A stretch of DNA of 11,055 nucleotides from a virus. Its lineage: Duplodnaviria; Heunggongvirae; Uroviricota; Caudoviricetes. Positions 1-11,055 of the stretch are shown in pieces. The notes under the pieces were generated by a model. The model saw only the letters and a program-made list of their open reading frames with translations. It was not told where the DNA came from and ran no database searches. Made by a program: the position numbers and the translations under genes. Position 1 is the stretch's first letter. Each line of letters begins with the position of its first letter. The stretch lies in the IMG/VR virus record IMGVR_UViG_2695420804_000018; one strand, written 5' to 3'.

Positions 1-483
1 ATGACGAAGAAAAAAGCACATAAACCTGGTTCAGCGACCATCGCGCTTAACAAGCGCGCCCGTCACGAATACTTTATCGAAGAAGAGTTCGAAGCGGGAC
101 TTGCCCTGCAAGGCTGGGAGGTTAAATCCCTGCGCGCAGGAAAAGCCAATATCAGCGACAGCTACGTCCTTCTGCGTGACGGAGAGGCATTTCTGTTTGG
201 CGCTAACATCACGCCAATGGCCGTGGCCTCCACGCATGTGGTGTGCGATCCTACCCGTACCCGCAAGTTACTTCTCAACCAGCGCGAACTGGACTCATTG
301 TACGGTCGCGTCAATCGAGAAGGCTATACCGTAGTGGCGCTCTCCCTGTACTGGAAAAATGCCTGGTGCAAAGTGAAAATCGGCGTCGCCAAAGGTAAAA
401 AACAGCACGATAAACGTTCAGATATCAAAGAACGCGAATGGCAGGTGGATAAAGCACGTATCATGAAAAACGCCCACCGTTAA
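1..483 (+). CDS. smpB: SsrA-binding protein SmpB
   Basis: 160-aa ORF ([25 protein letters not shown]...IMKNAHR) with TAA stop at 481-483; recognised from memory as enterobacterial SmpB; sits directly upstream of the tmRNA gene as in E. coli. Confidence 0.96.
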
Positions 484-646
484 ACCTGCACTCCAATTAT
501 TGACCAGTTCCTCACCGCGCCTCCCTCTCCGGCGGCGCGAATCAACATCTTATTGGCTATCACATCCGACACAAATGTTGCCATCCCATTGCTTAATCGA
601 ATAAAAATCAGGCTACATGGGTGCTAAATCTTTAACGATAACGCCA

Positions 647-683
647 TTGAGGCTGGTCATGGCGCTCATAAATCTGGTATACT
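647..683 (+). promoter_or_regulatory. putative ssrA promoter region (-10-like TATACT at 678-683)
   Basis: TATACT hexamer about 15 nt upstream of the mature tmRNA 5' end, consistent with a short 5' leader; a -35 element could not be placed with proper spacing, so this is tentative. Confidence 0.3.
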
Positions 684-697
684 TACCTTTACACATT

Positions 698-1060
698 GGG
701 GCTGATTCTGGATTCGACGGGATTTGCGAAACCCAAGGTGCATGCCGAGGGGCGGTTGGCCTCGTAAAAAGCCGCAAAAAATAGTCGCAAACGACGAAAA
801 CTACGCTTTAGCAGCTTAATAACCTGCTTAGAGCCCTCTCTCCCTAGCCTCCGCTCTTAGGACGGGGATCAAGAGAGGTCAAACCCAAAAGAGATCGCGT
901 GGAAGCCCTGCCTGGGGTTGAAGCGTTAAAACTTAATCAGGCTAGTTTGTTAGTGGCGTGTCCGTCCGCAGCTGGCAAGCGAATGTAAAGACTGACTAAG
1001 CATGTAGTACCGAGGATGTAGGAATTTCGGACGCGGGTTCAACTCCCGCCAGCTCCACCA
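698..1060 (+). ncRNA. ssrA: transfer-messenger RNA (tmRNA, 10Sa RNA), 363 nt
   Basis: Begins GGGGCTGATTCTGGATTCGACGGG and ends GGGTTCAACTCCCGCCAGCTCCACCA (tRNA-Ala-like acceptor/T-arm with encoded CCA); contains the canonical tag reading frame; matches E. coli tmRNA as I recall it. Confidence 0.97.
787..819 (+). other. tmRNA tag-peptide reading frame (ANDENYALAA + TAA)
   Basis: GCA AAC GAC GAA AAC TAC GCT TTA GCA GCT TAA read directly from the sequence; this is the SsrA degradation tag, starting at the GCA resume codon. Confidence 0.93.
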
Positions 1061-1189
1061 ATCATGATTGGACGGTGTAAGGACAACACCAACAAAAACA
1101 GGAAGTTAGCAGTCTCAGCAGGACACCGACCAGACGGTGAGGAGACAAAAAAGGATACGCAAAGGAGCCGCGGCTCTCAAGTGTGAAAG

Positions 1190-1217
1190 AAGCCCGCAAA
1201 TTGCGGGCTTTTTTATT
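1190..1217 (+). terminator. rho-independent terminator downstream of ssrA
   Basis: 8-bp stem AAGCCCGC / GCGGGCTT with a 5-nt loop, followed by TTTTATT. Confidence 0.65.
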
Positions 1218-1269
1218 GATCAGTCAACAATAAACAGTAACCGAATGAGAATTTAATAAGGATATTCAT

Positions 1270-2301
1270 ATGGAAGCTACTGTGGATTCGATTGATTTTC
1301 TGATCCGTAGTGAAGATGATTTTCTAAACTTTCTGGAAGAAATGAAAGCCCGAGAGGGGCTTGATTCTAAAGAGTTTATTTTCCCTAACGTAAAGTTTGC
1401 AGGCTGGCCATCCTTAGACATAAATGTAAAAGGAGAGCGGTATCATTCATCAATTACATCAGCAATGTTGTTTGGTATGTCAATGCTCAACGAGGAGATA
1501 CAGCGGGCGTTTGCAACCATACGATACGGATCGCAGAATCTTCAACGCTTGACTAATGAAGACAAGCAACGACTTGATATAAATTTTAAAATTAGCGAAG
1601 GTTCTAGTGATGCGGAAGGCACCACTGACAAGATCATCAACGCAGTAACTGATTTTTTGCGAGATACTATGTCTGGACTGAACGGCTGGCAGAAAATGCT
1701 TGTTATAATCACAATGGTTGGCGCGGCCAGCACATGTGGTTATCACTACATTTCAGAAAATGCCGTAACAGAAAGACATGCAACTGATCGGCAGGTTGAA
1801 ATTGCAAAAACCACATCCGATGGCATAAACAAAGCCATAGAAGCAACATTAGATTATAAAATCTATGGGAAATCAGCGATTAGCGATAAAGTTACTAGTC
1901 ACGGACAAGCAGGTAAAAGTGCTTTAGTGAAGCAATTAGCTGCTGATCCTACTGTCGAAACCGTGACTTTAGGAAATGAGAAACTAACACGACAAGACCT
2001 AAATACCTACAACAGCCGACAATCTGTAGATAGAGAACGTAAAGAACGAACTGATATATTTTCCATCAAAGGTGTAACCAGAACAGGGCCAACAAATCAG
2101 GATATTAATATTAACGTTGTTAGGGTCTCTAATGACGAATGCTTCACAATCAAAGCTTCAGCTGATGTTATCACCCAAGATGAGTTGACAGCTATTGTTG
2201 ACGCTTTGTCAAACAACTCTCATATTAAAATCAGTTACTTAGAGGTAATTGAAAAGGGTGCTGTTTCTATAGGTCAGTTCAACACTATTGTTTCAGAATA
2301 A
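1270..2301 (+). CDS. hypothetical protein, 343 aa, with a central hydrophobic segment; no family recognised
   Basis: Long ORF in AT-rich DNA (about 37% GC in the first 60 nt, counted by hand), where long open frames are unlikely by chance; AAGGA 7 nt upstream of ATG; residues ~143-161 (MLVIITMVGAASTCGYHYI) are hydrophobic; no Walker A, HEPN or other motif found by eye. Confidence 0.78.
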   Translation: MEATVDSIDFLIRSEDDFLNFLEEMKAREGLDSKEFIFPNVKFAGWPSLDINVKGERYHSSITSAMLFGMSMLNEEIQRAFATIRYGSQNLQRLTNEDKQRLDINFKISEGSSDAEGTTDKIINAVTDFLRDTMSGLNGWQKMLVIITMVGAASTCGYHYISENAVTERHATDRQVEIAKTTSDGINKAIEATLDYKIYGKSAISDKVTSHGQAGKSALVKQLAADPTVETVTLGNEKLTRQDLNTYNSRQSVDRERKERTDIFSIKGVTRTGPTNQDININVVRVSNDECFTIKASADVITQDELTAIVDALSNNSHIKISYLEVIEKGAVSIGQFNTIVSE

Positions 2302-2352
2302 TCACTTAACCCCATTTATGTCGGTTGAGGTTATAAGTCACGGAGACCAGAT

Positions 2353-2697
2353 ATGTCCTTAAAGTATGCACATGAAAAATTTCATACTGCAGTACTTACT
2401 CTTGCGGGCCATGGAAGTATTCAAGAACGCTTGATTAATTCGTATGTTTTTAGCCTTGGGCATCTTAAAACAGCCGATGATATTCCAAATGCCTTACAAA
2501 GCAGGTTCGATGAATTATGTAAGGAACTGACTAAGTTTGATGCCACTGGCGATGAGGGGCGAGTTCAAGCAACAGTATCAAAACTTAACGATTTCGAGAT
2601 CAATAAACTGATCGAAGATATTGTCAGTCTTAACGATGATATTTGCATGAAATTGGCTCTGACGGATGAGACTTACCAAGACATACACCAAAGTTAA
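2353..2697 (+). CDS. hypothetical small acidic protein, 114 aa; no family recognised
   Basis: Same strand as the upstream gene with a 51-bp gap; GGAG 7 nt upstream of ATG; same AT-rich composition; followed by a hairpin terminator. Confidence 0.7.
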   Translation: MSLKYAHEKFHTAVLTLAGHGSIQERLINSYVFSLGHLKTADDIPNALQSRFDELCKELTKFDATGDEGRVQATVSKLNDFEINKLIEDIVSLNDDICMKLALTDETYQDIHQS

Positions 2698-2724
2698 TTG
2701 ATTAAATTCAAAAAGTTAACGTTC

Positions 2725-2755
2725 AACCAGCCAGTTTTTGGCTGGTTTATTGTCT
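2725..2755. terminator. putative bidirectional hairpin terminator between convergent units
   Basis: AACCAGCCA-gtttt-TGGCTGGTT stem-loop with T-rich runs on both sides; lies between the + strand cassette and the - strand small ORF/invertase unit. Confidence 0.5.
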
Positions 2756-2781
2756 TATAATATTCTTGCTCGAATGATGCA

Positions 2782-2994
2782 CTATTTATGATGTAATCCG
2801 GACATCAGTTCATGGACAAGATTATCTCTTTCATTGTGTTGCAACCGTAAATGCATAGCAAAAAGGTGAGCACTATCCTCATTCCTCTTCAAGCCATGCT
2901 GTTCAAGATACCCGAAAAAACGGCTTCTCTTATCCGCTATTTCCTGAGTCTGACGTGCAACATTTACCAAATTTTCTAGCGTTTTTCTTGGCAT
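2782..2994 (-). CDS. small ORF downstream of invertase (first 63 codons conserved in both copies, then divergent tail); unknown function, possibly a 3'-truncated gene
   Basis: AGGAGG 8 nt upstream of ATG (reverse complement of 2995-3010); N-terminus MPRKTLENLVNVARQTQEIADKRSRFFGYLEQHGLKRNED...; the reading frame crosses the module boundary at 2807, so the C-terminus differs between copies. Confidence 0.45.
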   Translation of the reverse strand: MPRKTLENLVNVARQTQEIADKRSRFFGYLEQHGLKRNEDSAHLFAMHLRLQHNERDNLVHELMSGLHHK

Positions 2995-3192
2995 ACTATT
3001 TCCTCCTGAAATTGTTGTAATTCACTAGGATATTCATTTTAATTTGTATCATTTAGTACCAAAACCGCTATCAATTAACAAAGCCATCGTTGTGGTTTAC
3101 CTTGCAGCCGTTTTTTGTCATTGACTCTATGTGAAAATAATGAATCATCATGAGATTGGCTCACACGTTCTTGAATTCGACGAGCTGTGTCT

Positions 3193-3747
3193 TTATTTAT
3201 CTCCTGCCGGAAACCTCTGATACAAAGTCGATACGCCAACATCATAGATAATCGCAACTTTCTGGCGCGGAACTCCTGATGCAATTAATCGTCCGGCTTG
3301 TGCCCATTGTTCTGGTGTAAGTTTGGGACGACGTCCACCAATTCGTCCCTGTGCGCGAGCAGCTTCCAGTCCAGCTTTTGTTCGTTCAACAATCAGTTCT
3401 CGTTCCATTTCAGCCAGGGCCCCCATCACATGAAAGAAAAAGCGCCCCATTGGGGTACTGGTATCAATTGAATCCGTCAGACTACGAAAGTTGATGCCTC
3501 GTTCGCGCAACTCCTCCACCAGCACGACAAGATGCCGCATACTGCGCCCCAGTCGGTCCAGTTTCCAGACCACCAGCGTATCGCCTGCCGATAATGTCCT
3601 GAGCAGTTTTTTCAGTCCCGGCCTTTCGGACTTTGTACCGCTTATCTTGTCTTCAAAAATCAGCTCGCATCCTGCACAGTTCAGCGCATTACGTTGTAGA
3701 TCTGTGTTCTGGTCATTTGTTGACACACGTACATAGCCAATAAGCAT
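3193..3747 (-). CDS. site-specific DNA invertase, serine recombinase of the Gin/Hin/Pin/Cin family, 184 aa
   Basis: MLIGYVRVSTNDQNTDLQRNAL... gives the resolvase/invertase catalytic N-terminus with the active-site Ser in VRVST, plus a C-terminal HTH region (GVPRQKVAIIYDVGVSTLYQRF); start taken at MLIGY (AGGGAG upstream) rather than the upstream in-frame ATG of the ORF track; strongly resembles e14 Pin as I recall it. Confidence 0.93.
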   Translation of the reverse strand: MLIGYVRVSTNDQNTDLQRNALNCAGCELIFEDKISGTKSERPGLKKLLRTLSAGDTLVVWKLDRLGRSMRHLVVLVEELRERGINFRSLTDSIDTSTPMGRFFFHVMGALAEMERELIVERTKAGLEAARAQGRIGGRRPKLTPEQWAQAGRLIASGVPRQKVAIIYDVGVSTLYQRFPAGDK

Positions 3748-3801
3748 GGTAGATCTCCCTGACAAAAGCAGGAATGATGCCATTTGCTCGTTATTTCTGC
3801 A

Positions 3802-5557
<1,756 letters not shown>

Positions 5558-5560
5558 TCC

Positions 5561-6322
5561 ATGCATCGTATAGACACGAAAACCGCGCAGAAGGATAAGT
5601 TCGGCGCGGGTAAGAACGGTTTTACCCGTGGTAACCCCCAGACCGGCACACCTGCCACCGATCTGGATGATGACTACTTTGACATGTTGCAGGAAGAACT
5701 CTGCAGCGTGGTGGAGGCATCCGGTGCCAGCCTGGAGAAGGGGCGGCATGACCAGCTGCTTACCGCGCTTCGTGCGCTGCTGTTAAGCCGCAAGAATCCG
5801 TTTGGCGATATCAAATCTGATGGCACGGTGAAAACGGCTCTCGAAAACCTTGGTTTGGGAGAAGGTTCGGCATTACCCGTTGGTGTGCCTGTTCCGTGGC
5901 CTTCCGCCACTCCGCCAACGGGGTGGCTAAAATGTAACGGAGCAGTATTTTCTTCTGAAAAGTACCCAAATCTGGCAAAGGCTTACCCAACATTAAAATT
6001 ACCAGATTTACGCGGTGAATTTATTCGTGGCTGGGATGATGGGCGCGGGATTGACTCTGGTCGTAACTTATTATCTGCACAGAATGATGCAATTCAGAAT
6101 ATTGTTGGTTCTTTTGGGCGTACCCAGCTTTTTAGAGACGTACTTAGTTCAGGGCCATTTAGTCAACATGGGCAAGTATTATCTACAGGTCTAAAGGAAG
6201 CCGCAATTATTGAGGGTTATGGCGCTTATAACTGGACATTCGACGCATCTCGCTCAGTTCGCACAGCATCTGAAACCCGCTCCCGTAACATCGCCTTTAA
6301 TTATATTGTGAGGGCTGCATGA
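5561..6322 (+). CDS. phage tail-fibre protein: constant N-terminal domain (Sc, to about 5864) fused to variable C-terminal cassette Sv
   Basis: GGAG 6 nt upstream of ATG; [43 protein letters not shown]... is a typical tail-fibre N-terminal domain; a crossover site sits at the GLGE junction; the stop overlaps the start of the assembly gene (ATGA). Confidence 0.88.
5838..5863. other. hix/gix-like crossover site inside the tail-fibre gene (Sc/Sv junction)
   Basis: CTCTCGAAAACC-TT-GGTTTGGGAGAA; the reverse complement TTCTCCCAAACC-AA-GGTTTTCGAGAG matches hixL at about 19 of 26 positions; encodes ALENLGLGE. Confidence 0.75.
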
Positions 6323-6468
6323 TAAGTAAAGCTGTATTAAATAATGAACTCATCGCCACAAAGGCCGGAGACATTACCGTTTATAATTATGATGGTGAAA
6401 CACGGGAATATATTTCCACATCAACTGAATATCTTGCTGTGGGTGTTGGTATCCCGGCATGTTCCTGT
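5850..6468. repeat. 619-bp direct repeat (site inside half + Sv + U 5' part); partner is 9048-9666
   Basis: Offset 3198; identical ORF products (Sv and U codons 1-50). Confidence 0.85.
6319..6468 (+). pseudogene. tail-fibre assembly protein U, N-terminal 50 codons only, interrupted by pin module copy 2
   Basis: Identical to codons 1-50 of the full gene at 9517-10122; diverges at 6469 where the module begins. Confidence 0.75.
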
Positions 6469-6657
6469 AAGTTCATGGACAAGATTATCTCTTTCATTGT
6501 GTTGCAACCGTAAATGCATAGCAAAAAGGTGAGCACTATCCTCATTCCTCTTCAAGCCATGCTGTTCAAGATACCCGAAAAAACGGCTTCTCTTATCCGC
6601 TATTTCCTGAGTCTGACGTGCAACATTTACCAAATTTTCTAGCGTTTTTCTTGGCAT
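6421..6657 (-). CDS. small ORF downstream of invertase, copy 2 (same first 63 codons, different C-terminal tail)
   Basis: Same start and AGGAGG as copy 1; the tail (...TGTCRDTNTHSKIFS) comes from the reverse complement of U sequence beyond the module boundary. Confidence 0.4.
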   Translation of the reverse strand: MPRKTLENLVNVARQTQEIADKRSRFFGYLEQHGLKRNEDSAHLFAMHLRLQHNERDNLVHELTGTCRDTNTHSKIFS

Positions 6658-6855
6658 ACTATTTCCTCCTGAAATTGTTGTAATTCACTAGGATATTCAT
6701 TTTAATTTGTATCATTTAGTACCAAAACCGCTATCAATTAACAAAGCCATCGTTGTGGTTTACCTTGCAGCCGTTTTTTGTCATTGACTCTATGTGAAAA
6801 TAATGAATCATCATGAGATTGGCTCACACGTTCTTGAATTCGACGAGCTGTGTCT

Positions 6856-7410
6856 TTATTTATCTCCTGCCGGAAACCTCTGATACAAAGTCGATACGCC
6901 AACATCATAGATAATCGCAACTTTCTGGCGCGGAACTCCTGATGCAATTAATCGTCCGGCTTGTGCCCATTGTTCTGGTGTAAGTTTGGGACGACGTCCA
7001 CCAATTCGTCCCTGTGCGCGAGCAGCTTCCAGTCCAGCTTTTGTTCGTTCAACAATCAGTTCTCGTTCCATTTCAGCCAGGGCCCCCATCACATGAAAGA
7101 AAAAGCGCCCCATTGGGGTACTGGTATCAATTGAATCCGTCAGACTACGAAAGTTGATGCCTCGTTCGCGCAACTCCTCCACCAGCACGACAAGATGCCG
7201 CATACTGCGCCCCAGTCGGTCCAGTTTCCAGACCACCAGCGTATCGCCTGCCGATAATGTCCTGAGCAGTTTTTTCAGTCCCGGCCTTTCGGACTTTGTA
7301 CCGCTTATCTTGTCTTCAAAAATCAGCTCGCATCCTGCACAGTTCAGCGCATTACGTTGTAGATCTGTGTTCTGGTCATTTGTTGACACACGTACATAGC
7401 CAATAAGCAT
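6856..7410 (-). CDS. site-specific DNA invertase (Gin/Hin/Pin/Cin family), copy 2, 184 aa
   Basis: Identical to 3193-3747. Confidence 0.93.
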   Translation of the reverse strand: MLIGYVRVSTNDQNTDLQRNALNCAGCELIFEDKISGTKSERPGLKKLLRTLSAGDTLVVWKLDRLGRSMRHLVVLVEELRERGINFRSLTDSIDTSTPMGRFFFHVMGALAEMERELIVERTKAGLEAARAQGRIGGRRPKLTPEQWAQAGRLIASGVPRQKVAIIYDVGVSTLYQRFPAGDK

Positions 7411-7464
7411 GGTAGATCTCCCTGACAAAAGCAGGAATGATGCCATTTGCTCGTTATTTCTGCA

Positions 7465-7490
7465 TTTTCATAAACGTTGGTTTGGGAGAA
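7465..7490. other. hix/gix-like crossover site (invertase-proximal, copy 2)
   Basis: Same 26-bp sequence as 3802-3827; here it abuts the Sv' cassette. Confidence 0.7.
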
Positions 7491-7491
7491 G

Positions 7492-7931
7492 CGGCAAAAC
7501 GAAATGTGGGCAACGGGGAAAACCAAATCCCTGATATGTCTTTCTGGACGGTTACTGGTGGCAATGGAAATTTTGTGATTCGTCAACCTGACGGGCTAAT
7601 CATTCAGATGGTTACTGTAAGTATAAGCGGTCCAGTGGCGATGAATGGAATGACTGATAATGCTTATGCCATTACAGGTTCTAATAAGTCTTATATTGCC
7701 ACAGCCACATTGCCCTTTGTATTTCCTAATAAGGTGCTGGGCGTTATCCCTCTGGTATCAACAACAGCTTATGGTGGTGTATCCAGTAATATTACAGGTT
7801 CATACGCGACGGCGGTTTGTTCTTTTGCCGCTGTCAGGGGGAATAATACGATTGTGTTCAAAGTCGACAAACCACTGAATGCAGCCTTTCCTTCAGATAC
7901 CAGCGTCTCAGCGTTAATCATTGGACGGTAA
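7492..7931 (+). other. tail-fibre variable C-terminal cassette Sv' with no constant region upstream (silent cassette)
   Basis: Encodes [21 protein letters not shown]...ALIIGR, identical to the C-terminus of the - strand tail-fibre gene at 10540-10979; preceded by a crossover site instead of Sc. Confidence 0.7.
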
Positions 7932-7933
7932 GA

Positions 7934-8377
7934 ATGAACTCAGTATTCTTTTCACCCGCAAGTAAAAGTTTTTATCTGCAAGAATTGTTTCCAGAATATG
8001 AGGATGCGGGAACGCTTCCTGATGATGTTATTGAAATTACCAGAGAAACATATGAGCAATTTCTTGGGCTGCATCCAGAAGGGAAAGAAATTGGCGCTGA
8101 CAGTTCAGGACGGCCAATATGGATTAATTCCCCGCCGCCTTCAAAAGAGGATGAGATGCTGGCGGCTGAAATGAAAAAGATATCTTTGGTTTCAGAAGTC
8201 AATACCTACATCAATACCCATCAGTGGCCTGGCAAAGCTGCTATTGGTCGTCTGAAAGGTTACGAGCTGGAACAATATAATTTATGGCTGGATTATCTGG
8301 ACGCACTGGAACTGGTTGATACCTCCAGTGCTCCAGATATTGAATGGCCTACGCCTCCGGTAGTTCAGGCCAGATGA
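7934..8377 (+). CDS. tail-fibre assembly protein U' (alternative chaperone), 147 aa
   Basis: MNSVFFSPASKSF...; C-terminus LWLDYLDALELVDTSSAPDIEWPTPP is the conserved Tfa motif; identical to 10094-10537 on the opposite strand. Confidence 0.85.
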   Translation: MNSVFFSPASKSFYLQELFPEYEDAGTLPDDVIEITRETYEQFLGLHPEGKEIGADSSGRPIWINSPPPSKEDEMLAAEMKKISLVSEVNTYINTHQWPGKAAIGRLKGYELEQYNLWLDYLDALELVDTSSAPDIEWPTPPVVQAR

Positions 8378-8981
8378 CATCCGGCGCGGTGCTGGTATCT
8401 GTTGCAGTCACCGCGTCAATGTAATCCAGCACAGCGTTAAGCCGGGTTGTTTCTGCCTGCGTCAGCTTCCGCCCGGCCTGCAATTTCAGCTGAATCAGAC
8501 TAATGGAAGCCATAGCAGCATCAATCAGTGACTGGCGCCGTACTTCTGCCGCGTCTACTGCGGCGTTATGCTGTGCCTCAGTATCGGTCACCCATTTCTC
8601 ACCATCCCATTTATCGTATGACGTTAACGGGGCGATAGTGGTTGTATTTTCAGGACCCATCACATGAAAGAAAAAGCGCCCCATTGGGGTACTGGTATCA
8701 ATTGAATCCGTCAGACTACGAAAGTTGATGCCTCGTTCGCGCAACTCCTCCACCAGCACGACAAGATGCCGCATACTGCGCCCCAGTCGGTCCAGTTTCC
8801 AGACCACCAGCGTATCGCCTGCCGATAATGTCCTGAGCAGTTTTTTCAGTCCCGGCCTTTCGGACTTTGTACCGCTTATCTTGTCTTCAAAAATCAGCTC
8901 GCATCCTGCACAGTTCAGCGCATTACGTTGTAGATCTGTGTTCTGGTCATTTGTTGACACACGTACATAGCCAATAAGCAT
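8349..8981 (-). pseudogene. chimeric ORF: invertase codons 1-109 fused in frame to tail-fibre assembly protein U codons 101-201
   Basis: ...MGRFFFHVMG | PENTTTIAPLTSYDKWDGEKW...WPELPEA; nucleotide junction at 8655/8656 with short CAGG-type microhomology; lacks the invertase C-terminal HTH. Confidence 0.7.
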
Positions 8982-9062
8982 GGTAGATCTCCCTGACAAA
9001 AGCAGGAATGATGCCATTTGCTCGTTATTTCTGCATTTTCATAAACGTTGGTTTGGGAGAAG
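8656..9062. repeat. pin module partial copy 3 (407 bp: invertase 5' part, upstream region, crossover site)
   Basis: Identical by eye to 3422-3828 and 7085-7491. Confidence 0.88.
9036..9061. other. hix/gix-like crossover site (invertase-proximal, copy 3)
   Basis: Same sequence as 3802-3827; here it abuts the Sv cassette. Confidence 0.7.
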
Positions 9063-9520
9063 GTTCGGCATTACCCGTTGGTGTGCCTGTTCCGTGGCCT
9101 TCCGCCACTCCGCCAACGGGGTGGCTAAAATGTAACGGAGCAGTATTTTCTTCTGAAAAGTACCCAAATCTGGCAAAGGCTTACCCAACATTAAAATTAC
9201 CAGATTTACGCGGTGAATTTATTCGTGGCTGGGATGATGGGCGCGGGATTGACTCTGGTCGTAACTTATTATCTGCACAGAATGATGCAATTCAGAATAT
9301 TGTTGGTTCTTTTGGGCGTACCCAGCTTTTTAGAGACGTACTTAGTTCAGGGCCATTTAGTCAACATGGGCAAGTATTATCTACAGGTCTAAAGGAAGCC
9401 GCAATTATTGAGGGTTATGGCGCTTATAACTGGACATTCGACGCATCTCGCTCAGTTCGCACAGCATCTGAAACCCGCTCCCGTAACATCGCCTTTAATT
9501 ATATTGTGAGGGCTGCATGA
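9063..9520 (+). other. tail-fibre variable C-terminal cassette Sv, second copy, without constant region
   Basis: Identical to 5865-6322 ([21 protein letters not shown]...IVRAA). Confidence 0.7.
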
Positions 9521-10122
9521 TAAGTAAAGCTGTATTAAATAATGAACTCATCGCCACAAAGGCCGGAGACATTACCGTTTATAATTATGATGGTGAAACA
9601 CGGGAATATATTTCCACATCAACTGAATATCTTGCTGTGGGTGTTGGTATCCCGGCATGTTCCTGTTTAGATGCTCCTGGCTCATATAAAGCTGGTTATG
9701 CAATTTGCCGTTCTGCAGATTTTAACTCATGGGAATATGTGCCAGACCATCGCGGTGAAATCGTCTATAGCACCGAAACAGGAGAATCAAAAGAAATCAC
9801 ACTTCCGGGTGATTACCCTGAAAATACAACCACTATCGCCCCGTTAACGTCATACGATAAATGGGATGGTGAGAAATGGGTGACCGATACTGAGGCACAG
9901 CATAACGCCGCAGTAGACGCGGCAGAAGTACGGCGCCAGTCACTGATTGATGCTGCTATGGCTTCCATTAGTCTGATTCAGCTGAAATTGCAGGCCGGGC
10001 GGAAGCTGACGCAGGCAGAAACAACCCGGCTTAACGCTGTGCTGGATTACATTGACGCGGTGACTGCAACAGATACCAGCACCGCGCCGGATGTCATCTG
10101 GCCTGAACTACCGGAGGCGTAG
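9517..10122 (+). CDS. tail-fibre assembly protein U, full length, 201 aa
   Basis: [27 protein letters not shown]...; C-terminal Tfa motif LDYIDAVTATDTSTAPDVIWPELPE; start overlaps the Sv stop (ATGA); 3' end overlaps convergent U' by 29 bp. Confidence 0.9.
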   Translation: MISKAVLNNELIATKAGDITVYNYDGETREYISTSTEYLAVGVGIPACSCLDAPGSYKAGYAICRSADFNSWEYVPDHRGEIVYSTETGESKEITLPGDYPENTTTIAPLTSYDKWDGEKWVTDTEAQHNAAVDAAEVRRQSLIDAAMASISLIQLKLQAGRKLTQAETTRLNAVLDYIDAVTATDTSTAPDVIWPELPEA

Positions 10123-10979
10123 GCCATTCAATATCTGGAGCACTGGAGGTATCAACCAGTTCCAGTGCGTCCAGATAATCCAGCCATAAATTATATTGTT
10201 CCAGCTCGTAACCTTTCAGACGACCAATAGCAGCTTTGCCAGGCCACTGATGGGTATTGATGTAGGTATTGACTTCTGAAACCAAAGATATCTTTTTCAT
10301 TTCAGCCGCCAGCATCTCATCCTCTTTTGAAGGCGGCGGGGAATTAATCCATATTGGCCGTCCTGAACTGTCAGCGCCAATTTCTTTCCCTTCTGGATGC
10401 AGCCCAAGAAATTGCTCATATGTTTCTCTGGTAATTTCAATAACATCATCAGGAAGCGTTCCCGCATCCTCATATTCTGGAAACAATTCTTGCAGATAAA
10501 AACTTTTACTTGCGGGTGAAAAGAATACTGAGTTCATTCTTACCGTCCAATGATTAACGCTGAGACGCTGGTATCTGAAGGAAAGGCTGCATTCAGTGGT
10601 TTGTCGACTTTGAACACAATCGTATTATTCCCCCTGACAGCGGCAAAAGAACAAACCGCCGTCGCGTATGAACCTGTAATATTACTGGATACACCACCAT
10701 AAGCTGTTGTTGATACCAGAGGGATAACGCCCAGCACCTTATTAGGAAATACAAAGGGCAATGTGGCTGTGGCAATATAAGACTTATTAGAACCTGTAAT
10801 GGCATAAGCATTATCAGTCATTCCATTCATCGCCACTGGACCGCTTATACTTACAGTAACCATCTGAATGATTAGCCCGTCAGGTTGACGAATCACAAAA
10901 TTTCCATTGCCACCAGTAACCGTCCAGAAAGACATATCAGGGATTTGGTTTTCCCCGTTGCCCACATTTCGTTTTGCCG
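9816..10979. repeat. right arm of the 1164-bp inverted repeat
   Basis: Reverse complement of 7492-8655. Confidence 0.85.
10094..10537 (-). CDS. tail-fibre assembly protein U', 147 aa
   Basis: Reverse-complement copy of 7934-8377; lies downstream of the - strand tail-fibre gene. Confidence 0.88.
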   Translation of the reverse strand: MNSVFFSPASKSFYLQELFPEYEDAGTLPDDVIEITRETYEQFLGLHPEGKEIGADSSGRPIWINSPPPSKEDEMLAAEMKKISLVSEVNTYINTHQWPGKAAIGRLKGYELEQYNLWLDYLDALELVDTSSAPDIEWPTPPVVQAR

Positions 10980-11055
10980 CTTCTCCCAAACCAAGGTTTT
11001 CGAGAGCCGTTTTCACCGTGCCATCAGATTTGATATCGCCAAACGGATTCTTGCG
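10540..11055 (-). CDS. phage tail-fibre protein (Sc + Sv'), 5' end beyond the window edge
   Basis: C-terminal Sv' cassette joined through a crossover site to the same constant-region sequence as 5789-5864 (...[21 protein letters not shown]); the ATG at 11016 in the ORF track is internal. Confidence 0.85.
10981..11006. other. hix/gix-like crossover site in inverted orientation (Sc/Sv' junction of the - strand gene)
   Basis: TTCTCCCAAACC-AA-GGTTTTCGAGAG, the exact reverse complement of the site at 5838-5863. Confidence 0.75.

Follow-up and report, generated by a model that had tools for sequence, protein, structure and literature searches.

The window, by which we mean the whole stretch of 11,055 nucleotides that was analysed, is the end of draft contig CXZN01000041.1 of an E. 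coli draft assembly (GCA_001284765.1). It carries a gene for a DNA invertase, the crossover sites of this enzyme (pix), and the constant and alternative parts of a tail-fibre gene, together with neighbouring genes. These features are listed below by their position in the window (w); positions marked g refer to the canonical single-copy locus in window numbering, i.e. the coordinate in the complete genome L002 minus 4000.

3193..3747, minus strand: pinE, real copy, a serine DNA invertase of the Gin/Hin/Cin/Pin type, 184 aa (Pfam, similarity to Mu Gin, RefSeq pinE)
3809..3828, plus strand: pin-side pix, AAACG TT GGTTTGGGAGAAG, whose core TTGGTTTGGGAGAAG is the published e14 inverted repeat
3830..4925, minus strand: IS3-family transposase with programmed frameshift (Pfam rve and HTH_21; RefSeq, L002 10685-11862)
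4985..5557, plus strand: ymfQ, Mu Gp48-like baseplate/tail protein (Pfam Phage_Mu_Gp48, 1.1e-26; RefSeq); its strand in the real genome is minus
5561..5844, plus strand: Sc, encoding the constant N-terminal portion of the tail fibre; its place in the real genome is after the invertible segment, minus strand
9050..10992, no strand: the actual invertible P segment, 1943 nt from one central TT/AA dinucleotide to the other, in opposite orientations in L001 and L002
9063..9520, plus strand: tail-fibre C-terminal cassette B, collar domain (Pfam Collar, 2.9e-15; PHROG tail fibre families)
9517..10122, plus strand: tail-fibre assembly chaperone of cassette B, 201 aa (Pfam Caudo_TAP, 1.1e-31)
10094..10537, minus strand: tail-fibre assembly chaperone of cassette C, 147 aa (Pfam Caudo_TAP, 6.4e-27)
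10540..10979, minus strand: tail-fibre C-terminal cassette C (Gp53-like_C just under the Pfam cut-off; PHROG tail fibre families)
10980..10999, minus strand: tail-fibre-side pix, AAACC TT GGTTTGGGAGAAG, shown again at 5845-5864 (plus strand) in a flipped piece (P2, see below)

PinE matches the Pfam families Resolvase (PF00239, 1.8e-51) and HTH_7 (PF02796, 4e-13) as well as the DNA invertase family phrog_125 (7.5e-97), and is 77.9% identical to Mu Gin in structure 3uj3 (E=1.3e-93). Its N-terminus, MLIGYVRVSTNDQ, includes the catalytic Ser9 within a Y-V-R-V-S motif, position 9 being Ala in the aligned Gin crystal construct. Given the 78% identity to Gin, the invertase gene is expected to contain a Fis-bound recombinational enhancer towards its 5' end. 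The pix sites consist of the half-sites TTTTCATAAACG and CTCTCGAAAACC, then TT, then GGTTTGGGAGAA, and we take these half-sites to be similar to the hix/gix consensus. The canonical locus has exactly one pix site on the plus strand and one on the minus strand. The inverted repeats that truly exist measure just 20 bp, of which 15 are perfect.

The approximately 1.94 kb between the pix sites encode two convergent alternative tail-fibre ends, each with a chaperone. Cassette B together with Sc gives a 253-aa fibre, as in 5561-6322, and cassette C is joined in frame through pix to Sc in the last piece of the window (P4). The complete genomes L001 and L002 carry the segment in opposite orientations between identical flanks. 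The base 5' of the TT is polymorphic, G on the pin side and C on the Sc side, and stays with the left flank in all five junctions (5/5), while the right half-site pairs with either cassette. The behaviour of the polymorphic base locates the exchange within the 15 shared bases 3' of it, and strand exchange, placed only to these 15 bases, is consistent with a central TT core. We recognize the feature as an ordinary e14-type P segment, a predicted DNA-invertase switch of the Hin/Gin/Cin/Pin type, in which site-specific exchange at the central TT would swap the tail-fibre tip fused to the constant N-terminus. Judging from the sequence, flipping is the work of the site-specific serine invertase acting at pix, not of homologous recombination.

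The original prediction was concerned with much of the same region, and described 7492-8655 as the exact reverse complement of 9816-10979 (1164 bp) and 5850-6468 as a direct repeat of 9048-9666. The direct repeat is exact over its 619 nt and extends to 5845/9043 with one mismatch. The inverted repeat stands for 1163 of its 1164 nt and fails at w8655, which is N in the source; in full, its arms span 1183 nt (7472-8654 and 9817-10999) and disagree only at 7476. We also found repeats that had not been mentioned, namely a direct repeat of 2807-3828 at 6470-7491 (1022 nt, 100%), a sequence of 407 nt in three copies (3422-3828, 7085-7491, and 8656-9062), and an inverted repeat of 76 nt that reaches the window end (5789-5864 and the reverse complement of 10980-11055). 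The 20-mer AAAC[G/C]TTGGTTTGGGAGAAG borders every repeat family, at 3809, 5845, 7472, and 9043 on the plus strand and 10980 on the minus strand. Within the repeats, pinE is seen again at 6856-7410 and, truncated, at 8656-8981, the pin-side pix at 7472-7491 and 9043-9062, and the chaperone of cassette C at 7934-8377 (plus strand), all of them artefactual. The repeats are real for the window as given and go beyond chance, yet they are no property of the organism's DNA.

Comparison of the window with CXZN01000041.1 revealed mismatches at three positions only, w3829, w6469, and w8655, where the record has N and the window has 'A'. The 'A' at these positions is an N-to-A substitution introduced somewhere between the record and the window. 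The three positions are exactly the three breaks in collinearity with complete E. coli genomes, and there are no further non-collinear joins.

3829, no strand: scaffold gap J1; the public record has N, the window 'A'
6469, no strand: scaffold gap J2; the public record has N, the window 'A'
8655, no strand: scaffold gap J3; the public record has N, the window 'A', and the gap creates a spurious Pin-Tfa fusion ORF

Each junction had been examined before the source was known, and each showed a single base ('A') fitting neither flank and zero microhomology. The J1 gap removes the last 82 nt of the IS3 transposase coding sequence (breakpoint L002 11780). The spurious Pin-Tfa fusion ORF across J3 lies at 8349-9017 on the minus strand; its 210-aa product (start MLIGYV) has an exact protein match on record, as a predicted protein of contig CXZN01000041.1 in GCA_001284765.1, and the 222-aa form had no match in the exact-protein look-up. 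An exact scan for the J3 junction in a collection of genome contigs gave no match, as expected, since each species is represented there by one genome and Ns are retained. A literature search for the accession found no citing paper.

The Ns delimit four pieces, each 99.9-100% identical to one single-copy locus of about 8 kb. In the complete genomes L001 and L002, this locus reads smpB-ssrA-three unknown genes-pinE-[invertible tail-fibre cassette]-stf-ymfQ-IS3.

1..3828, plus strand: P1, correctly placed, 100% identical to L002 4001-7828; smpB, ssrA, the three unknown genes, pinE, and the pin-side pix
3830..6468, minus strand: P2, misplaced and reversed, L002 11780->9142 on the minus strand with 1 mismatch in 2639 nt; truncated IS3 transposase, ymfQ, Sc, pix, and cassette B to mid-tfa
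6470..8654, plus strand: P3, redundant with P1, 100% identical to L002 6807-8991; a second version of pinE and pix, then cassette C (flip state 'pin-C')
8656..11055, plus strand: P4, differs from L001 7422-9821 at 2 of 2400 nt; 5' half of pinE, pix, the invertible segment in full (flip state 'pin-B'), the second pix (inverted), and Sc up to its nt 56

There is redundancy of content among the pieces, P2 runs backwards, and both flip states occur; taken together, the four cover every pix junction that can arise (pin-B, pin-C, Sc-B, and Sc-C). Of the parts of the window, P4 gives the best view of the real switch. The segment 8656-9815, which had been put forward as the invertible one, is not a unit, since it begins directly after a scaffold gap; the true segment, w9050-10992, is flanked by the 20-bp pix sites.

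None of 5,426 complete genomes covered at least 80% of the window, and probes for the J2 and J3 junctions were found in 0 of the 5,426. The J1 probe gave four apparent matches; in the three listed records they consist of two pieces over a span of about 545-548 bp, and in the one record that was inspected, the two pieces are non-contiguous, about 430 bp apart. Many complete genomes have the true pix junctions (pin-B in 777, pin-C in 832), and the junction probes hit a single place in most genomes (median 1).

We are almost certain that the window is the mis-scaffolded end of a short-read draft, and that next to ssrA the isolate carries a single Pin switch of the e14 type. The original prediction had offered an assembler artefact from mixed inversion states as one of its two readings, and this proves essentially correct, given the Ns at 3/3 joins and an arrangement present in 0/5,426 complete genomes. 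Its other reading, in which the kilobase repeats serve as RecA substrates for inversion, deletion, and duplication, is unsupported, as the genome contains no such long repeats. For the arrangement to be real, with genuine inverted and direct kilobase duplications on which RecA could act to invert, delete, or amplify DNA, the Ns would have to be merely ambiguous base calls. The repeats are indeed perfect in the deposited sequence, but the three Ns, and only those, sit at the collinearity breaks, no join has microhomology, J2 and J3 are absent from all 5,426 genomes, the J1 matches are two-piece in the listed records, one of which was inspected, and the joins interrupt genes, with breaks in the middle of pinE, 82 nt short of the end of the IS3 transposase, and in tfa. 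We regard this arrangement as highly improbable.

Even less credible is an origin in vitro, by ligation of dA-tailed fragments into a chimera with one untemplated A per join, sequenced as one molecule. A single 'A' without microhomology at 3/3 joins is what such ligation would leave, but the three 'A's are N in the record, on which ground we reject this origin, and it is implausible that four random fragments would come from one 8-kb locus of a 5-Mb genome. Moreover, P1 ends at the end of the 20-mer, on the last base common to both flip states, as one would expect of an algorithm and not of shearing. Pin recombination at secondary (quasi-pix) sites was also considered and rejected; the joins lack pix-like sequence, and J1 keeps the complete right half-site, with no break at the core.

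The artefact originates in scaffolding, i.e. in contigs joined by gaps, and not in a contiguous mis-traversal of reads. From the contigs, it appears that Pin flipped the segment during growth, so that both orientations would have been present in the sequenced culture and the assembly graph would have branched at the pix sites. P1 stops on the last shared base, and the contig itself stops exactly 78 nt into shared sequence. A read-pair scaffolder would then have made false joins between contigs, and a greedy gap-filler may have grown the contig ends into the false gaps until one N was left, thereby copying the same DNA two or three times. We infer this GapFiller-type route from the pattern of pieces and Ns. 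SSPACE and GapFiller are known to be greedy, to make false joins, to leave N gaps, and to extend contig ends into gaps from both sides (PMC5320598, PMC3446322). Mixed e14 P segments have been reported in ordinary clonal cultures (PMC4272514; PMC12529663), with about 30% inverted in the wild type (PMC12529663).

The scaffold could also be an artefact in which nothing flipped in culture, the two 'states' being paralogous pin/P-segment copies fixed in opposite orientations, one in the ssrA remnant and one in an intact e14/Mu-tail-like prophage. Some strains, CD45 among them, have such a second cassette copy in an intact prophage; that of CD45 encodes the same cassette proteins, and P4 lies wholly within the region common to both CD45 copies. 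When the piece starts and stops g2807, g3422, g4991, g5142, and g7780 were checked as graph branch points, only g3422 gave a hint: the CD45 paralogs differ at g3421, the base preceding the P4 start, as expected if a paralog had made the graph branch there. Nevertheless, the CD45 copies differ at 20 positions over the P4 span, whereas the P4 overlaps with P1, P2, and P3 are all 100% identical (407 nt of pin, 619 nt of B, 1178 nt of C, and 56 nt of Sc). P2 and P4 also share a strain-specific SNP, C at w6204 and w9402 against A in the references, indicating that they come from the same strain. In addition, the junction probes found one place in most genomes, and mixed cultures are the documented norm for e14 (PMC4272514, PMC12529663). 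We thus consider fixed paralogs unlikely and retain a single switch that flipped in culture as the source of the two states.

The kilobase repeats are therefore not a real genomic feature, and the underlying switch is a textbook e14/Pin P segment that brings little biological news. The occurrence of all four pix junctions in the assembly of one isolate suggests that the Pin switch of the remnant is still active. What is left in the remnant beside ssrA amounts to pinE, ymfQ, and the invertible stf/tfa cassettes; none of these reading frames is broken. It is conceivable, if rather doubtful, that the remnant has been domesticated by the host as a phase-variable module and is not phage DNA in decay. 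A possible role would be that of a surface protein like StfE2, which in the e14 of K-12 is reported to block phage adsorption in one orientation (PMC12529663).

Between ssrA and pin, we observe a low-GC islet of three genes encoding 343, 114, and 70 aa. Pfam and PADLOC gave no matches for these genes, and PHROGs gave only a family of unknown function, for the 343-aa protein. If the remnant is such a host module, they could belong to the same island.

For users of draft genomes, the implication is that segments inverting during growth lead to local duplication and misjoins in scaffolded short-read drafts, and that such artefacts put spurious products, such as the 210-aa 'Pin-Tfa fusion', into public protein collections. 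Single-N scaffold gaps turned into 'A' make false joins resemble determined sequence; Ns should be kept or flagged.

The closest known system is the e14 P segment of E. coli K-12, which, with its PinE, was reportedly described by Plasterk and van de Putte in 1985. It has the same invertase, annotated pinE, and the same crossover core TTGGTTTGGGAGAAG (PMC4272514, PMC12529663). The layout is also the same, with the invertase beside a segment of about 1.8-1.9 kb that holds two convergent tail-fibre C-termini and their chaperones, ymfQ lies upstream of the fibre gene as here, and both orientations are found in nature. Nevertheless, e14 sits at icd, whereas the present locus is a short remnant beside ssrA (pin, segment, stf, ymfQ, then IS3). 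The present segment measures 1943 nt between cores, against a published 1797 bp in K-12, its cassette sequences differ from those of e14, and the three-gene low-GC islet between ssrA and pin is extra. The Mu G and P1 C segments follow the same logic, a constant S part with alternative variable parts that have their own chaperones (U/U'), and the crossover sites of Mu Gin, whose recombinase is the one 77.9% identical to PinE here, and of P1 Cin have a 2-bp core, as here; Mu and P1 are phages, whereas the present locus is a defective chromosomal remnant. As for the arrangement of the window, misjoins of the SSPACE/GapFiller type likewise show contigs joined by N, greedy extension into gaps that never close, and false joins in repeated or heterogeneous regions (PMC5320598, PMC3446322). 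Unlike in ordinary misjoins of this type, the residual single Ns are here further disguised as 'A' in the window.

The repeat arrangement of the window is a scaffolding artefact over a Pin/e14 inversion switch. In the self-comparison of the window, the inverted arms span 7472-8654 and 9817-10999 (1183 nt) with a single mismatch at 7476. The original prediction had taken 7492-8655 as the exact reverse complement of 9816-10979; 1163 of the 1164 positions do match, and position 8655 does not. The direct repeat also described there (5850-6468 and 9048-9666) is indeed exact. Three further families were absent from that description, namely a direct repeat of 1022 nt (2807-3828 and 6470-7491), a three-copy repeat of 407 nt (3422-3828, 7085-7491, and 8656-9062), and a 76-nt inverted repeat (5789-5864 and the reverse complement of 10980-11055) running up to the window end. 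The families all converge on a 20-mer, AAAC[G/C]TTGGTTTGGGAGAAG, located at 3809, 5845, 7472, and 9043 on the plus strand and at 10980 on the minus strand, which is the Pin crossover site (pix). Positions 2807-11055, about 8.2 kb, re-describe approximately 5 kb of genome, partly two to three times and partly reversed. The genes are as follows.

Gene content of the window
1-483: smpB
698-1060: ssrA tmRNA
1270-2994: three-gene low-GC islet between ssrA and pinE, function unassigned
3193-3747, minus: pinE, 184-aa serine invertase (Resolvase and HTH_7 domains; 77.9% identity to Mu Gin, E=1.3e-93)
3830-4925, minus: IS3-family transposase
4985-5557: ymfQ
5561-6322: tail-fibre gene crossing the 20-mer
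9063-10979: two alternative fibre C-termini, each with a Caudo_TAP chaperone downstream

The islet (GC about 38%) encodes products of 343, 114, and 70 aa, the last on the minus strand. Pfam and PADLOC gave no match for any of them, and the sole match of the 343-aa protein is phrog_6191, of unknown function. Of 5,426 complete E. coli genomes, only 46 cover 80% or more of positions 1061-3192.

No place covering 80% of the window was found in any of the 5,426 genomes. The closest ones carry the locus in single copy and in a canonical order: smpB-ssrA-hyp343-hyp114-hyp70(-)-pinE(-)-pix on the left, then the invertible part with cassette B and tfa facing tfa' and cassette C, the alternative tail-fibre C-termini, and then pix(inverted)-Sc(-)-ymfQ(-)-IS3(+), Sc being the constant N-terminal part of the fibre gene. 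The cassette segment lies in opposite orientations in strains CD45 (L001) and 602687 (L002). Against these two loci, the window resolves into four collinear pieces.

Pieces of the window and their matches
P1, 1-3828: L002 4001-7828, plus
P2, 3830-6468: L002 11780 to 9142, reverse strand
P3, 6470-8654: L002 6807-8991, plus
P4, 8656-11055: L001 7422-9821, other flip state

As controls, 120-nt probes were compared with the complete genomes at a threshold of at least 80% coverage. The probes across the joins at 6469 (J2) and 8655 (J3) matched 0 genomes, and the true pin-pix-B and pin-pix-C junctions matched 777 and 832, respectively. The probe for the join at 3829 (J1) gave four apparent genomes, the listed matches each consisting of two pieces over about 545-548 bp of the record; in the one inspected, about 430 bp separates pix from IS3, and the site belongs to a different prophage. 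NZ_CP026085.1, labelled DH5alpha, encodes an identical copy of the IS3-family transposase protein (WP_085968792.1; L005 1907-3084), inserted some 400 bp into a further recombinase-linked invertible tail-fibre segment, in a different prophage. IS3-type repeats adjoining paralogous pin-pix sites could misguide a read-pair scaffolder. Downstream of IS3 and adjoining a ypjA remnant, L002 12722-12862 is a recombinase pseudogene fragment that matches part of pinE (3478-3618) at about 85% identity, the remains of another Pin-type gene of that island.

At each join, one base fits neither the continuation of the left piece nor the lead-in of the right one; microhomology is zero, and the odd base is always A. 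The joins cut pinE and tfa mid-gene and the IS3 transposase 82 nt short of its end, and P1 stops at the final base common to both flip states. Exact-sequence look-up of the ORF spanning J3 identified the window as the end of contig CXZN01000041.1 (34,448 nt; GCA_001284765.1), from which it differs only at 3829, 6469, and 8655, where the record has N and the window A. Each join is thus a scaffold gap of a single N rather than determined sequence, and the three A's are N-to-A substitutions, apparently introduced by the encoding of the window, which hid the gaps from a sequence-only reader. Together with the J2 and J3 probes and the absence of the arrangement from all 5,426 genomes, the N's bear out the assembly artefact that the original prediction had offered as one alternative. 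Across J3, a spurious 210-aa fusion of the Pin N-terminus and the Tfa C-terminus (8349-8981, minus) reads through the gap as a GGN glycine codon, and a public protein collection lists this fusion as a predicted protein that matches Resolvase and Caudo_TAP. The warning on N-to-A substitution and the detection of such a fusion in public collections are the useful outcomes.

This assembly contains each of the four possible junctions, namely pin-B, pin-C, Sc-B, and Sc-C. Since the overlaps between pieces are 100% identical and share a strain-specific SNP (6204 and 9402), the pieces represent one locus in two states. Both orientations of e14-type P segments are found in ordinary clonal cultures (PMC4272514), and about 30% of the wild-type K-12 e14 P segment is inverted (PMC12529663). 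Such a culture might be imitated by a pair of paralogous loci, one fixed in each state. CD45 does have a second pinE and invertible cassette (NZ_CP182220.1, L004 7406-10858), which lie in an intact prophage whose baseplate and tail genes are Mu-like; they share 97.7% identity with the remnant beside ssrA and have the opposite orientation. Nevertheless, we consider a paralog pair as the source of the two states improbable, as the CD45 copies differ at 20 positions across the P4 span, whereas P4 of the window is identical to the other pieces in every overlap; if true, it would leave the verdict on the repeats unchanged. One CD45 paralog difference, at position 3421 of the canonical locus (L002 coordinate minus 4000), falls directly before the P4 start.

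For one locus in mixed orientation, a de Bruijn graph would branch at the pix sites, in agreement with P1 stopping at the last base common to both states. The contig ends exactly 78 nt past the first common base of the inverted pix (10980-11055, the record running 2 nt beyond the window), from which we infer an overlap of k-1 in a graph built with k=79, a hint of a Velvet-type assembler. A read-pair scaffolder would then have made the false joins, and a greedy gap-filler would have extended contig ends from both sides into gaps that never closed, duplicating sequence and leaving one N per gap. SSPACE and GapFiller are described as greedy programs that make false joins, leave gaps of N, and extend contigs from both sides of a gap (PMC5320598, PMC3446322); no paper citing the accession of the record was found, and a route of this type most likely produced the artefact.

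The true inverted repeats measure 20 bp and include one mismatch, leaving 15 bp perfect. This is far below the length assumed for the RecA-dependent recombination proposed as the other alternative, which does not hold. In the left half-site of pix, the base directly upstream of the central TT (3813, 5849, 7476, 9047, and 10995) is polymorphic, with G beside pin and C beside Sc. Which base is present always follows the left flank, and the right half-site pairs with either cassette; the polymorphism is therefore a natural marker of the position of strand exchange. At a resolution coarser than the core itself, this sequence pattern is consistent with the exchange that a Gin/Hin-type site predicts at its 2-bp core. 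The inversion unit is the 1943 nt between the cores (9050-10992, in P4), and not 8656-9815 as originally proposed. Inversion fuses Sc either with cassette B, for a fibre of 253 aa, or with cassette C, each time placing the matching chaperone behind the fused cassette. Within the 20-mer, the 15-nt core, TTGGTTTGGGAGAAGG, is identical to the inverted repeat published for the e14 P segment (PMC12529663), and the underlying switch is of the already known Pin/e14 type.
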